From: a candidate division WWE3 bacterium
Lineage (GTDB): Bacteria; Patescibacteriota; 4484-211; GCA-002791395
NCBI GenBank assembly: GCA_013335095.1
Contig: JAAXWF010000003.1
Location: 154,048-218,047 of the forward strand
DNA: 64,000 nucleotides
Direction: 5' to 3'
The first letter of the stretch is position 1. Every line of letters begins with the position of its first letter. Made by a program: the position numbers. Below are positions 54,001-63,000 of this stretch, one piece after another.

Positions 54001-57000
54001 ACATCGGCGATGATTGCGGCGGGAAAGTATAGGAGGGGCAGTAGCCCGGCCCCTATGGTCATTCCACCAATAAGCCAGCGGAAAACCCTTGTCCGGTATC
54101 CGATGACGACAAGCGTCAACTGGATAACCGACGCCACCACCACCATATGCTCGAAAGCATGGATGGGTGACCACGTTGGGTCTGGAAGGGCGATTTGCTT
54201 GAATGCCACAAAGACCATGATGGTCAAACATGCAATCAGCAGTTGCGCATCAAACTCTTCCTCGGCCTGCGTTCCAATGTTAGAACGTTCCACTTGCATA
54301 GCGCCGTCTCCTTAACTCATACTGCCAGAATGGCCCATATAGTATACGATTAGACCGTATAGTTTTCAATATGGCATATCTGATATTTACCATTTTTTGA
54401 TGTCGAGTAATGTATGGTAGGATTAAAAATAGAGTTGATGAGAAAGAATATCCAAAAAATTCTTTGGGCAAATTGGAAAGATATTGGTCACCCTCAAGCG
54501 GGCGGGGCTGAGTTTGTGAATCACGAAATTGCTCGCCGGTTGGTGGCTGATGGGTACTTTGTAACGTTATTAACCTCGTTATATGATGGTGCGGCTGAGG
54601 CCGATCAAATAGACGGCGTCCAAGTTGTCAGAATCGGTAAAAGTAGATACTTACATACCTTCCAGGCGTTATACTACTATCTTCGCTATTTGCGTGGTCA
54701 ATATGATCTTATTGTCGAAAGCGTTAACACCGCTCCTTATATGATTGGCCGTTTTTTAAAAGGTGAAAAACTACTCCTATTTTATCATCAGCTTGCCCAC
54801 GAGGTCTGGTTTCATCAAACAACATTTCCATTAAGTTCATTAGGATATTACGTGTTAGAACCCGTAGCAACAGCACTAAATGTTGCCACTCCCTCTCAAA
54901 TCGTGACGATATCGGAAAGCACTAAAAAGGATCTTGTACATCATGGCTTTTCCGAAAAAAGAATTCATATAATTTCTGAGGCTATTGGAATGGAGCCAAT
55001 TGCAAATTTAAGTCGGGTGATAAAACCAACGAAGCGAATTATTTTGGCCCTCGGTGCGATTAGATCAATGAAACGTACTGATGAAATTATTAAAGCATTT
55101 GAGATTGCTAAACGTAAATATGATGATTTAGAACTAATTTTAGCTGGTCGTGCCGAGGGCAACTATGGCCAATCTGTACTCGAATATATAGGAAATTCAC
55201 CCTATTCGAGCGATATTACTTATTTAGGGCATATTACTGATTATCAAAAGCAAGATTTACTCAAACGGGCTTATATTCTGTGTGGGGCATCGATTAAAGA
55301 GGGCTGGGGATTAACTGTAACAGAAGCAAATTCTCAGGGAACTCCAGCCATTGTTTATAACGTGGACGGTTTAAGAGATAGTGTTAAACACGATGAAACC
55401 GGCATTATTTGTATGGAGAATTCTCCAGAATCTATGGCTGCACAGATACTTTTGTTGTTAGATGATCGGGTTAAATATAAGAAACTACAGAAAAATGCTT
55501 GGGAAATGAGCAAATCAATTACTCCATCAAAGAGTTATGCTGATTTTCGTAGCCTTTTGGAATCTATGTAAAACTTGAAAAGCTTATAGTGTTTTGGTAT
55601 TATGTTCTCATGTTTCCGTGGTGCTGCGGCACCTACTTTGGAGGACAATTATGTCCAAGTCTCCTGTGGAGAAGTTTGAGGTCGTGGGGGTTGCTCACGA
55701 AGAGTTCGGCGTAGTGAGTGAGGACGGGATGTGCGTGGTGTACGTCTCGAACCTCGTGATGACCAGAAACCTGTTCGTTGAGGTTCTGGGTGCCACAGTT
55801 GTATTGAGCTATGAAATGGCCGATGAGAAAGCCGGTGAACGTCGGTACAAGATTCTCCAGCTTGGCGAGTCGCTCATCTGCCTCGTGCGCGATGAGCGCA
55901 TGCTGGAGTTCGGACCGGTATCGAGCCTGGTCGAAGCTGTGAATGTGGTCGCAACGAACATTGCGGCTATCGTGACCGCTTTAAAGGCCTATTGGCCAGA
56001 GTTGTTCGAAGTCCATTACGGCGATCATGGCCAAATTGGGCTGTTGCCCAACAAGCTGATCGCCAATGGGATCATTCTCTACGAGCACTACGGCGAGTAG
56101 GGAAAGTAGACGGCGGCGGGGAAGAAAAACTTCCCCGCTTTTTTATTATTCCAACACCTTGTAAGACTTATAGTAATTTGGTATCCTATACCCACGGTAA
56201 TCTTCACCAGAGCATCATGCTAGGAGGACGTATTATGTCCACAGTCGTCGTGGATCGGAATGGTCGGCCGGTAACCGGTGAATTGACAGTGGTGACCGTC
56301 CAGGATCTGGATATCGCTTTGGCCGTGTTCACCGAAGTTTTCGATGCACAACCGTTTATCTGTGTGCGTAAACCTGAAAGTGGTGTTAAGCCACATGCAA
56401 TCGTCACAATCAAAGGGCACTGGGTGTGCTTGGAGATTGACGCTACGAAGATGGATCTCGTATTCACGAATCCTCAGGTACCAACGCTTTTTCTGGAGGT
56501 CGATAATCCCCGGGAGACGGCGCGGACGCTTGCACATCGGTTCTGGGGTAAGACCGAGTCTGAACCCACCGCCGCTGGCCTGTTAATGCTTCTGATTGGA
56601 ATTATGGCAAACGCCATTGTTCTGATGGAACGTAAGACGGAGCCTACGGTGATCTAAGTCGGCACAACTTGGGTATCGGACGCGGGAGGGGTAAAATCTC
56701 TCCCGCTCTAGCTCAATACGGCCATAATGAATTTACGTTCTACTTAGTGTGGAGGGCTATCATGTCCTTGGTGTTATCACCCATCGGAACCGCCGCTTCG
56801 AGTGATCTTACACCTCTTTTTGTAGAGGATATGGCATTGGCCGAGGTCTTATTCTGTAAATACCTTGGTGCAAAGGTATTGTTTCGGAGTAGTGCTCCTG
56901 AGGATCCATCAGTAAAGCCACATTGTGTCGTTGTTATCGGAACACATTGGATTGTGCTTGAACTGGACCCCAGTCGAGCGAAAAAAGATAACCTCCAGTT

Positions 57001-60000: not shown

Positions 60001-63000
60001 TGTTCCTCGCATATGTAACTGTTGCTCAATAGGGTATACTTGGTGGTGCTAGATTCTTGGAACTTAGGAGGAGGTGGGATTATGCCACCAGATGAATCGA
60101 ATCTGGAAACAGTTGTGACGGCATTTGTTGCCACAATTGTTGATCTCGGACGGATGATGACGTTGTATCTCTACGAACGCCCATTGGTGCAGCGTCATTC
60201 AGAGGGCGGTATGACGATCTCTTTTCCTGCAAATCCAGAAGGAGAGGTCGGATTCATGGTGTGGCCCGATCCAAGTGGTGATATTAACTTCGAAGCTATT
60301 GGATCGGAGTACTCGATCTATCTGATTACTGGCTCTTGCGACGTACGCAAGCGAAGTCGCGAGCTAAAGCTTCTCCCCGAAGGGGTAGATACGTATGACT
60401 CGACAAGTAAGCGGCCTTCGGGGGACTTTTCGCCCAAGTTTGCCTAACACGCGGGAGGTGCTGGTATGCATCTCCCATTTTTTTATTTTCCTTATCGCCA
60501 GCTATACATAATGTTGATAGTATGAACTTCACAACAGGCACGATCGAATGAGGAGGTCTATATGGATTCCTTTACGCAAGCGCTGGCAAATCTACGTCAG
60601 CAGCGATTAGGTCAGGAATCGATGGATGGAGATTATTCTCCAGATGGACTAAATCAACTTCTTCGGCACAGGCAGCAAGAGCTCGAATGGTTTCGAGGAC
60701 TTTCTGCCACGGGTCAGGTGTACCTGGCGTCTTTATTGGCACGAGTTAATCTGATTTTATTGGGCGAAGCTGGTACGATCAGCGAGATGCCGCATTGGGC
60801 AGGGTTTGGCGGCCACCATTCTATTAGTTATTGTTTGACGTGGAGAGACGGGGATACACGAAACATTACGCTAACTGTATATACTGACCGAATGGTTTCG
60901 GGTCAGTTTAATGGTGATCCGCCAACGCAATTAATCTCGGTCGATTCCTACCGGGTCGTTCAATTTTTTGAACAATGGCTTATTGAGGTTTTGACTCAGA
61001 TTACCGTCAATGAAATTGGACAGATTGTGTGCAGGCAATCTGTTCAGTGTGAGTAAACCCCGCGGGATGAATGATCTTCATCCCGCATTTTAACGGGGCT
61101 TTATATGATTTCTTGCAAAAGTCCCATTTTTTCGTTATCATTACTATAAGCTAAAATTCGGAGGGGTTCCGGCCCCGAATTAGGGAAGGAGCCAGTTATG
61201 GCTATTCGATGGATCGAGAAGCGTCTTATGACGTTCACTCACCGAACTATCCTGTATACGCCAGGTGGGCGTATCGTCATCTTGTCGGCCGAGGCGGGTC
61301 AAGTGCTTCGTATGCCTACCGATTCGGGCATGAAGCAGATCAGCTTCTATAATCCCAGCGATGAGGTCGCAGGGGTAGAACTCGACAGTGAAGGCCATGT
61401 TCTGAGCGTCTTGGTCGATGGAGAACACATCGACTACTTTGGCGAATCTACGACTATTCGCAATGCCGAAGGACGCTTTGAGGTACAGGTGCCTCAATAC
61501 TTAATCGAGGGGCAGATGACCCCTGCACTAGAGGATGAATTCGCATAAAAACAGGCAAAAGCCTTATATATCTACACGGGGGGAGCAGGACGGCCGGCTC
61601 CCCCTTTCCACGTACCACACACGACTATTACTCTAATGAAAAACCATTTTCAGTAAAATATCGATAAATTTTTGATTGTATTGTCCGAGGCGCATCGGCA
61701 AGTGGTAACAAAAGAATTTGTTGTCCGCCTGCTTGTGATTTATAAAGTAGATATAAACAGGTACCGGCCTGTCTGACGGTTTCTATTTGTTTTAGCGGAA
61801 GTATGTTTTCTTCATTTGGAGATAATTTGATATATTCGCGATAAAAAGTATACGTTGTCTCATATGGTTTGGGGTATTTAATTAAATCTTTTTTTAACAA
61901 ACTCGCAGGAATATTACGACTAAACGGTATGGGTATCGTTCTTGTTATAAGTAATATTGAAACGATGAAGTAATAAATTATAAGAAGGGGAGTACTACCT
62001 GGGAGTAGTGAAAGCTGAATAAAAAAGACTGGTGGTACAAGAAGTGCTAATAAGGTGACTGTTCCAATAATAATTTTTTTAACAGAAATTGTCTCGCCTA
62101 ATGCTAACAGTGTTTTGGCTAACAGCTCGTTACTGTATTTTACTGGTAATTCAAATAATGGCTCATTTTGAACATGATCCATACATTAACTAATACCGCA
62201 TCCTAACAAAAAATACTAGTTCAAGGTGCATTTGGCTTTATCTTGTATAATAAAACTCATAACAGTCGTAATGGGATGCTCTAGATAGAGCTATGGAGGT
62301 GCCTGATGGACATAGAGTGCAGGATGACCAAATTGGTCGTTGTCGCAATTCCAGGTATCGCAAAACCGATCCAAATGTTGGCCGATGATCAGGTCCACTA
62401 TGAACCCATCTATCGTCGCCTTTCGTTTGGACGTTCGGTGACAAATCTTTATAAGCGGATGGTTCTTTCTGATCAGGGACGAACTGGCCAGATCGTATGT
62501 GCCGTTGGCTCTAACGTTATGATCGCTGATGTCATTGTGGATGTTGCGGTGGAGTCAAACGGCTTCGTCCGATCTGTTAGACATCGTTATCCCGACGAAT
62601 TGAAGTTGGTATTCGTACATGATTTCCATATTTGGATACCAGGAAATAATGGTGTGCAAATGTGGTTCACTGTCGATTGGATTCTAAATAGATCCGAAGG
62701 TCAGGCGATGTTTTCACAGGCGATCCTTCGGGATGATATGATGACTTATGTCCGCAAGGGAACGATATTCTTTGATCCTCATAGCTCGACGGTGATTGAC
62801 TTACCGATTTCACGTAAATACACCAAGACCGTCGAAGAATCAGAGCCGACGATCGGATAGGTTCTGATTAAAATCTTTGGGGAGGTTTACGCCTCCCTTT
62901 ACTTTTATTATTTTACATTGTGATATAATTCGGTGTCCCATAGCGTAGTGCAACGATCATAAGGAGGCCATGATGGTCGAGCGAACGACTTATCGTATCA

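Follow-up and report, generated by a model that had tools for sequence, protein, structure and literature searches.

Organization of the locus

The 64-kb stretch of DNA analysed here (the window), from a bacterium of candidate division WWE3 (CPR/Patescibacteria), contains at least 14 self-contained mini-genes in a row, all in the same orientation (the array), the first nine of which lie within 55575-61056. The features of the locus are the following:

52683..54299, minus strand: three small multi-pass membrane orphan genes, GC-rich and SD-led, between the GT2 and GT4 genes
54414..55571, plus strand: GT4 glycosyltransferase (Pfam PF00534/PF13439), the host anchor gene just upstream of the array; GC 0.39, no SD site
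55574..55605, plus strand: promoter element copy 1, upstream of c1; -35 TTGAAA at 55575-55580, TG-extended -10 TATTAT at 55598-55603
55651..56100, plus strand: c1, 149 aa (NTV31392.1, singleton cluster), the most divergent member of the c2/c3 family
56115..56139, plus strand: intrinsic terminator of c1, 10-bp stem and T run
56158..56189, plus strand: promoter element copy 2, upstream of c2; -35 TTGTAA, -10 TATCCT
56235..56657, plus strand: c2, 140 aa, putative VOC-fold family member, nearest to the outside homologue P0004
56682..56706, plus strand: hairpin 3' of c2, without a T run, like the terminator after P0004 in the related contig L005
56762..57154, plus strand: c3, 130 aa, c2 paralogue
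57270..57767, plus strand: c4, 165 aa, probable c6 paralogue; VOC-like order of secondary structure in a poor model
57866..58690, plus strand: c5, 274 aa, orphan with no detectable relative
58834..59337, plus strand: c6, 167 aa, GTG start, probable c4 paralogue
59488..59961, plus strand: c7, 157 aa, c9 paralogue
60082..60447, plus strand: c8, 121 aa, unrelated orphan between the paralogues c7 and c9
60562..61056, plus strand: c9, 164 aa, c7 paralogue
61198..64000, plus strand: continuation of the array past the region first noted (c10, c12, c13, c14, c15)
61198-61548, plus strand: c10
61628-62182, minus strand: host-like gene interrupting the continuation, AT-rich and SD-less
62306-62860, plus strand: c12, probable c13 paralogue
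62970-63269, plus strand: c13, probable c12 paralogue
63413-63736, plus strand: c14
from 63843, plus strand: c15, running off the window

Each array unit has a single ORF of 99-274 codons with a leader of 40-70 nt, a sigma-70-like -10 box 38-74 nt upstream (that of c12 was read by eye) and a strong GGAGG/AGGAG ribosome-binding site (RBS), and a terminal hairpin follows 12 of the 14 complete units (11/13 when the complete plus-strand units are counted). The only motifs common to the spacers in a k-mer search are the SD sequence, TATAAT and T runs; long DNA repeats were not found within the window, and Rfam at permissive thresholds gave no leader RNA family in the array. The three membrane orphans at 52683..54299 belong to the same gene class as the array, and their arrangement is kept in a relative (L086). 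A look-up with c14 for the locus beyond the window returned a 1.1-kb contig only.

The array proteins have no match in Pfam, NCBIfam, PHROGs or PADLOC. In a cluster look-up c1, c4-c10 and c12 (n = 9) each fell into a cluster confined to this genome, and none of the 11 cassette proteins looked up occurs in another genome in public data. No signal peptide or N-terminal hydrophobic segment was found in c1-c10. The first-pass annotation had likened the array to antigen-variation families; a surface family of this kind is unlikely because no cassette protein carries an N-terminal signal peptide, and switching was set aside as well, all copies having their own expression signals and the DNA lacking repeats suited to recombination.

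Paralogues and a duplicated promoter element

The paralogy first noticed between c2 and c3 and between c7 and c9 is borne out, the quoted peptides being present in the translations of both pairs. c2 and c3 share 34% identity over 80 aa (blastp, E=3e-10), with a Smith-Waterman score of 107 compared to 26.8 for shuffled sequences (z=19; 0/300 shuffles as high), while c7 and c9 share 32% identity over 117 aa (blastp, E=3e-8; shuffle z=14). c4/c6 (z=5.9; 0/300 shuffles as high) and c12/c13 (shuffle z=5.5) are probably further pairs, judged by the same kind of comparison. c1 proved to be the third member of the c2/c3 family, detected by a c2+c3 HMM at E=4.7e-4 among 169 window ORFs and matching P0004 at E=5e-4. 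c1, c2 and c3 are thus adjacent paralogues that have promoter, leader length, RBS and start context in common.

The 32-nt element upstream of c1 and c2 is 24/32 identical between its two copies, as first described, albeit one base to the right of where it had been placed (CTTG starts at 55574 and 56158). Both copies begin exactly 77 nt before the ATG, and in the 80 nt upstream, anchored at the ATG, c1 and c2 agree at 43/80 positions, the mean of 78 cassette pairs being 22.5 (sd 4.7). In 85 unrelated loci (~0.9 Mb, both strands) the best match to either 32-mer is 22/32. An independent third copy, 23-24/32 identical (23/32 to copy 1), stands upstream of the sole outside homologue, in L005. The likeness is beyond chance because of the equal distance to the ATG, the ceiling of 22/32 in unrelated loci and the third copy in L005. 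The CTTATAGT core alone is not enriched in the window (4 matches, 2.0 expected).

In part, the array has grown as complete expression units were copied in tandem together with their promoters, giving rise to {c1, c2, c3} and {c7, c9}, and probably also to {c4, c6} and {c12, c13}. Growth by local duplication and divergence, as first proposed, is supported, but not as an ongoing process: dS exceeds 2 or is undefined for every paralogue pair, and since dS is saturated and long DNA repeats are absent from the window, the duplications are ancient. dN/dS between paralogues, suggested earlier as a check, was computed and is unusable for the same saturation, so the rates of divergence do not establish positive selection and would come out the same under relaxed constraint.

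The c1-c3 family in related lineages

An exhaustive HMMER search of 1.84 billion representative proteins with the c1-c3 family retrieved c1-c3 and P0004 (E=8e-7) only, and a c2/c3 profile run against 5.8 billion proteins found self matches only. The family thus has four known members, all from one WWE3 lineage. In L005 an orthologous GT4 gene is followed by the same promoter element, a GGAGGAC RBS, the c2-like gene (P0004) and a c2-like terminator. The GT4 orthologues share 65% (L005) and 56% (L086) identity with that of the window, and each is followed by a GC-rich, SD-led orphan gene. L005 and L086, two short contigs (1.4 kb and 3.9 kb) that make up the comparative evidence, have the same split between GC-rich SD-led and AT-rich SD-less genes and the same local architecture.

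Beside the orthologous GT4 of a related lineage, a c2-like gene with the same promoter element was already present. Between the same two genomes dN is 0.77 for c2 and P0004 and 0.29 for GT4; the c2-like gene has thus changed ~2.6 times faster than GT4 at non-synonymous sites since the lineages split. The only outside relative of c1-c3 lies directly after the orthologous GT4 and behind the same promoter element, and therefore the duplication of whole expression units is old and was followed by divergence much faster than that of the neighbouring gene.

A scan of genome contigs with GT4 found unrelated bacteria only (23-30% identity), and a scan of metagenome contigs with the GT4 alignment found 80 Patescibacteria loci, all at <=51% identity, in which none of the cassettes had a tblastn match at E<0.1. 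A GC-rich patch in one further locus (L034) had at first resembled a second example but was set aside, since it adjoins KH and trmD genes.

Fold of the c1-c3 proteins

The AF2 model of c2 consists of two beta-alpha-beta-beta-beta modules forming a VOC (glyoxalase/bleomycin-resistance) fold, with a pLDDT of 57 and three sequences as input. We infer that the c1-c3 family adopts this fold; the assignment rests on one model of moderate confidence, and no sequence method gave significance. No Pfam family, PF00903 included, matched c1-c3 at E<=1, the PDB profile matches are VOC proteins at E=0.6-1.1 plus one unrelated entry (1rcu), the sole NCBIfam match of c3 is FosX (E=0.13; 12.5 bits vs a cutoff of 170), and hhalign to the host VOC protein gave E=0.1. 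The latter, the product of 14639-15043, does belong to the Pfam family Glyoxalase (PF00903, 31.7 bits vs a cutoff of 20.6), in line with the VOC pattern first noted for it.

The invariant columns of c1, c2, c3 and P0004 are M1, S2, V22, F32, L66, D69, A125 and L130, and none of the columns conserved among the four is a metal-binding His or Glu. Because of the lack of a conserved His or Glu column, the c1-c3 proteins are more likely to be non-catalytic, binding or sequestering a ligand in the manner of the bleomycin- and mitomycin-binding proteins, than to be enzymes. They resemble the VOC binding proteins (BLMA, Tn5 Ble, MRD, TnmS, EhpR), FosA/B/X and glyoxalase I in their ~130-150 aa and in the paired modules of the c2 model, and the binding proteins also in having no conserved set of metal ligands; they differ from these proteins in lacking significant sequence similarity to them and in being encoded in a tandem array of independently transcribed orphans.

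The first-pass annotation had seen VOC patterns in several array members, which is not supported beyond c1-c3. The c4 model has the order b-a-b-b-b ... b-a-b-b-b, but at a pLDDT of 42.6, and its best Foldseek match has E=0.1, with VOC entries scattered among the non-significant ones. In hhalign the c1-c3 profile reached E=0.019 with the c4/c6 profile and E=0.54 with c5; no VOC protein is found among the PDB sequence matches of c4, c5 and c6, and c5 and c6 have no detectable link to the fold. c7/c9 have no PDB sequence match. Since c4-c6 could not be tied to the VOC fold and c7/c9 offer no structural clue, membership of all array proteins in a single superfamily is not demonstrated.

Two classes of genes in the window

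GC is 0.46-0.55 in the array units and ~0.40 in the host genes; the mean GC3 is 0.55 in the GC-rich orphans vs 0.32 in the host genes and reaches 0.70-0.82 in some units. An SD site precedes 26/26 GC-rich orphan genes vs 1/38 AT-rich host genes in the window, a contrast that is slightly circular, the starts of the GC-rich genes having been chosen partly by the SD motif. The GC-rich units occupy six separate sites with host genes interleaved. A literature search found no description in CPR of a split between SD-led and leaderless genes or of GC-rich orphans.

A tentative reading, which we regard as possible albeit doubtful, is that this WWE3 lineage has two gene regimes: an AT-rich, mostly SD-less and apparently leaderless core, and GC-rich, monocistronic, SD-dependent orphan mini-genes. 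The latter would serve defence or host interaction as a dedicated, separately controlled and hyper-evolving repertoire. Across lineages these mini-genes keep their position and composition offset, while their sequences would change too rapidly for orthologues to be recognised. Biased gene conversion driven by recombination, or selection on the mRNAs, could be what maintains their GC excess.

Origin and role of the array

We propose that the locus is a partly duplicated mini-gene array, c1-c3 having the VOC fold, and that it serves defence or host interaction as an accessory gene set that is specific to the lineage and diversifies rapidly, a reading to which we give somewhat better than an even chance. 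The role is suggested by the rapid divergence, the orphan status and the genomic context. The array would be transcribed gene by gene and translated in an SD-dependent manner, unlike the mostly SD-less and apparently leaderless host genes.

Alternatively, though this is unlikely, the array could be foreign DNA, such as the remains of a prophage, a cluster of early-region genes or morons, or some other integrated mobile element, its GC, SD sites and private promoters and terminators reflecting the donor. The composition offset, the orphan status of all array proteins and the resemblance of the promoter-ORF-terminator units to phage morons and accessory orphan islands agree with such an origin. 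However, the array differs from these in lacking a phage context and mobility genes (integrase, transposase and phage structural genes are absent from the 64 kb), its proteins have no tblastn match in 50,697 phage or 72,556 plasmid records, and no viral-contig (IMG/VR) relatives of two family profiles and no significant PHROG match were found. The only tRNA is 30 kb from the array. Imported islands are usually more AT-rich than their host, whereas the GC of the array is above that of its host. The GC-rich units are also dispersed among host genes, and position, promoter element and composition offset are conserved in distant relatives beside GT4 genes only 56-65% identical, that is, for far longer than amelioration should take.

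It is rather improbable that the array is a collection of orphan immunity genes directed at polymorphic toxins or bacteriocins, one small cytoplasmic protein neutralising each toxin and duplication diversifying the set; the first-pass annotation had also likened the array to immunity-protein families. Orphan immunity-gene arrays do share with this one small, co-oriented and rapidly diverging proteins without signal peptides and tandem paralogues, and the neighbouring GC-rich units encode small multi-pass membrane proteins, as in bacteriocin immunity. Against this, toxin genes are absent from the window, as are toxin C-terminal fragments from the stretches between cassettes; a recombinase is likewise lacking, and neither the array nor its flanks match an Imm, SUKH or SMI1 Pfam family or a PADLOC model. 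To our knowledge, VOC is not a recognised immunity-protein fold.

It is very unlikely that the GC-rich ORFs are young or decaying proto-genes, or relics without maintained function, and their similarities neutral leftovers of duplication. Orphan status, extreme divergence, poor AF2 confidence and an unmeasurable dN/dS would fit. Set against these are 14 consecutive intact ORFs of 99-274 codons in DNA of ~50% GC, all preceded by a promoter-like box and a GGAGG at the proper spacing, and mostly followed by a terminator; a VOC-like core still recognisable in the c1-c3 family while GT4 changed by 35%; and a local architecture kept in three lineages. An integron-like cassette array built by site-specific recombination, which small co-oriented orphan ORFs and VOC-fold proteins known from integron cassettes (PDB 3ghj) might recall, is largely refuted already and its chance close to negligible: the spacers have no attC-like or other common repeat, neither IntI nor any tyrosine recombinase is encoded by the scanned window ORFs, each unit brings a promoter of its own and, in most cases, a terminator, in contrast to integron cassettes, which as a rule lack promoters, and the paralogues arose by promoter-inclusive duplication.

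Hypothetical proteins in tandem paralogous copies are commonplace; what this case adds is the duplication of whole expression units, promoter included, and their subsequent divergence, ~2.6 times faster than that of a housekeeping-type neighbour, in a lineage that is episymbiotic and genome-reduced and whose accessory functions are almost unknown. c1-c3 and P0004, four proteins among ~15 billion, would make up a VOC-fold family that is new and extremely divergent, and for which ligand binding is more probable than catalysis. If the split between the two gene classes is genome-wide, the fast-evolving accessory genes of these uncultured bacteria would be recognisable by a simple signature in the sequence. 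The split also raises the question of what maintains two regimes of composition and translation initiation in a genome of ~1 Mb.

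Tandem units in the array

The c1-c15 array of small genes, in a candidate division WWE3 bacterium, is best explained as a lineage-specific, fast-evolving accessory array with a predicted family of VOC-fold (glyoxalase/bleomycin-resistance) binding proteins at its start. Nine plus-strand ORFs lie between 55575 and 61056, directly downstream of the host glycosyltransferase gene GT4 (54414-55571, +), and the array continues past c9 and the window end.

Genes of the cassette array
55651-56100, +, ORF c1
56235-56657, +, ORF c2
56762-57154, +, ORF c3
57270-57767, +, ORF c4
57866-58690, +, ORF c5
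58834-59337, +, ORF c6
59488-59961, +, ORF c7
60082-60447, +, ORF c8
60562-61056, +, ORF c9
61198-61548, +, c10, continuation of the array past c9
61628-62182, -, AT-rich gene breaking the run in composition and strand
62306-62860, +, c12, continuation
62970-63269, +, c13, continuation
63413-63736, +, c14, continuation
from 63843 past the window end, +, c15, continuation

All array units have GGAGG or AGGAG 5-9 nt ahead of the start codon, and a scan placed a TATAAT-like box 38-74 nt upstream in 13 of the 14 plus-strand units; for c12, where the scan settled on a poorer match, inspection by eye gave a TATAAT about 56 nt upstream. Termination signals, each a G+C-rich hairpin with a T-rich tail, close 11 of the 13 complete plus-strand units (the c2 hairpin is without a T run and that of c7 is weak). 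Since each unit has a ribosome-binding site (RBS) and a promoter-like box, and most have a terminator, the units are self-contained transcription units. The cassette proteins (NCBI NTV31392-NTV31403, HGA91_05460-05515) are annotated as hypothetical throughout. For c4 and GT4 the start chosen by NCBI is not the one that the sequence signals support: c4 has 141 aa in NTV31395.1 and 165 aa if read from the ATG at 57270 that follows a GGAGG, and GT4 has 377 aa as annotated and 385 aa from the first ATG. An independent (Logan) assembly of the source run SRR11449211 splits the array between a 70-kb and a 1.1-kb contig, SRR11449211_23904 ending at window position ~63075 and _76595 covering 63066-64161; this break may reflect strain heterogeneity.

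The first-pass annotation proposed that the array grows at least partly by local duplication and divergence, quoting peptides shared by c2 and c3 and by c7 and c9. These peptides are present in the translations, and both paralogies are firmly supported (c2/c3, blastp E=3e-10, shuffle z=19; c7/c9, E=3e-8, z=14; the score was reached by 0/300 shuffles in each case). When the 169 window ORFs were searched with a c2-c3 HMM, c1 scored highest after c2 and c3 themselves (E=4.7e-4); this match, together with the promoter, leader, RBS and Met-Ser start common to c1-c3, defines a three-member tandem family. By sequence comparison, c4/c6 (shuffle z=5.9) and c12/c13 (z=5.5 and a 21/24 DNA match within the coding region) are probable further paralogue pairs, and c5, c8, c10 and c14 have no detectable relatives in the window. 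As dS is saturated in every pair, dN/dS between paralogues is not estimable.

A 32-nt element spanning the -35/-10 region had been reported upstream of c1 and c2. Its 24/32 identity holds; its positions are each one nucleotide further on than had been given.

Copies of the promoter element
55574-55605, +, copy upstream of c1
56158-56189, +, copy upstream of c2

This likeness is not due to chance, because both copies start at an equal distance from the ATG, background matches are lower (the 80 nt upstream of c1 and c2 are identical at 43/80 positions, against 22.5 ± 4.7 for other cassette pairs, and the closest match to either 32-mer across unrelated loci totalling ~0.9 Mb is 22/32), and a third copy, matching both window copies at 23-24/32, occurs in another genome, at L005. 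A motif search of the spacers returned only generic SD (Shine-Dalgarno) sites, TATAAT boxes and T runs as common motifs, so the element is confined to the c1/c2 lineage and does not recur across the array. Its core, CTTATAGT, occurs inverted in the c10 promoter region (61143-61150, -), probably by chance, as the 8-mer by itself shows no enrichment in the window (4 occurrences, 2.0 expected). Whole expression units, with their promoters, were duplicated in tandem, which accounts for part of the growth of the array, in agreement with the local duplication proposed.

A predicted VOC-fold family

The AF2 model of c2, built on a three-sequence alignment (pLDDT 57, pTM 0.50), contains two beta-alpha-beta-beta-beta modules, and a Foldseek search against the PDB returned only VOC proteins among the top 50 (FosA/B/X, MCEE, glyoxalases; E ~7e-4, TM 0.45-0.55). 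Sub-threshold sequence matches in the PDB and NCBIfam are likewise all VOC except one unrelated PDB entry. The four family members (c1-c3 and P0004, their sole outside homologue, encoded in L005) have no invariant His or Glu column. From the model, both sets of matches and this lack we infer that the family may consist of non-catalytic, ligand-binding VOC proteins. The VOC fold had been ascribed to several cassettes and to the host gene 14639-15043. The latter has a genuine Pfam Glyoxalase match; among the cassettes, the assignment stands as a prediction for the c1-c3 family, and c4 is a possible further case, its poor model (pLDDT 42.6) having a secondary-structure order compatible with VOC and giving nothing significant in a fold search. 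Comparison of the c1-c3 profile with c4/c6, c5 and c7/c9 gave E=0.019, 0.54 and 0.62, respectively.

Conservation at related loci

A c2/c3 profile found only self matches among 5.8 billion proteins, and when a c1-c3 profile was run exhaustively with HMMER against 1.84 billion representatives, c1, c2, c3 and P0004 (E=8e-7) alone were retrieved. For each of the nine cassette proteins looked up, the 90%-identity cluster is limited to this genome. L005, the home of P0004, is a 1.4-kb contig from a different sample (SRR21121628), in which P0004 directly follows the C-terminal 253 residues of a GT4 orthologue 65% identical to the window GT4. The promoter element there overlaps the GT4 stop codon and is followed by a GGAGGAC RBS, P0004 itself and a terminator like the c2 hairpin. 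P0004 and c2 share 30% identity; dN between the window and L005 is 0.77 for the cassette (c2/P0004) and 0.29 for GT4, with dS saturated here as well.

At a third locus, L086 (from ERZ15185498; GT4 56% identical to that of the window), GT4 is preceded by three small minus-strand membrane orphans and, just downstream, followed by an SD-led orphan of 155 aa that carries a TATAAT box and a terminator of its own. This local plan is the same as the window's, and no sequence similarity is detectable between the L086 orphans and window genes. The window has three small GC-rich, SD-led, multi-pass membrane orphans (52683-54299, -) flanked by the GT2 and GT4 genes; the three-gene arrangement recurs at L086 141-1744 (-), again with no detectable similarity. 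Two more homologous loci (L087 and L088; GT4 53% identical) are compact glycosyltransferase operons without such units. Comparison with L005 and L086 thus shows that the array and its duplications are old and that protein turnover is fast.

Two gene classes in the window

The GC-rich ORFs (26 in the window) differ from the 38 host-like genes in mean GC (0.52 vs 0.39), mean GC3 (0.55 vs 0.32) and Pfam matches (0 of 22 scanned vs 22 of 29). GGAGG or AGGAG precedes the start in 26/26 GC-rich and 1/38 host-like genes (Fisher's exact test, p=4e-17), a contrast that is partly circular, a few GC-rich starts having been picked by the SD motif; a TATAAT-like box lies 3-13 nt ahead of the start in 0/26 and 13/38, respectively (p=4e-4). 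The short distance of this -10 box from the start points to leaderless transcription of the 13 host genes.

Sites of GC-rich orphans
15094-16149, -, GC-rich orphan site
30040-30330, -, GC-rich orphan site
36632-37222, +, GC-rich orphan site
44922-50297, GC-rich orphan site
52683-54299, -, GC-rich orphan site
55651-64000, +, GC-rich orphan site

The SD-led gene at 15094-16149 encodes a 351-aa protein without Pfam match, with a hydrophobic signal-like N-terminal segment and three internal ~105-aa repeats, each ending in G-x-W-G-(L/I)-G. Nearby, 16239-17270 (-) encodes a Thr/Pro-rich protein whose C-terminus (LPESG, a hydrophobic tail and KKI) makes it look like a sortase-anchored surface protein. 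The 196-aa, SD-led ORF at 36632-37222 shares ~150 nt with the 5' end of a NUDIX-domain gene on the other strand (35801-36784, -).

A GC offset beside GT4 recurs in L005 (GC3 0.53 vs 0.33) and L086 (0.51-0.74 vs 0.43) and is absent from ~30 other Patescibacteria loci. Having been kept through 35-44% GT4 divergence, the gap does not sit easily with a recent, ameliorating import and suggests an actively maintained property. Elsewhere, a ~48% GC patch in a 34% GC Patescibacteria contig (L034, 500-2300), with three small SD-preceded ORFs adjoining KH-domain and trmD genes, might be a small island of the same type or else a structured RNA.

Nature of the array

The duplication observed in the first-pass annotation is confirmed, and its interpretation is supported in part. 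The likeness to immunity-protein arrays fits the general look of the locus, but the window has no trace of a toxin, and there is no recognised immunity domain among the products. Acquisition as a prophage or moron would explain why the units are autonomous and differ in composition; this reading fails because mobility genes are lacking in the window, viral similarity is lacking as well, and synteny is conserved. An integron is likewise rejected, as neither attC sites nor an integrase are present in the window and the cassettes are not promoterless. The absence of signal peptides from the products makes antigen variation unlikely, and non-functional ORFs are an unlikely explanation of 14 intact, properly signalled genes in a conserved architecture.

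Paralogy in itself is ordinary. What makes the lineage-specific array noteworthy is a new VOC-like orphan family, a duplicated promoter and gene unit that is conserved in a relative, and a two-regime organisation of the genome.
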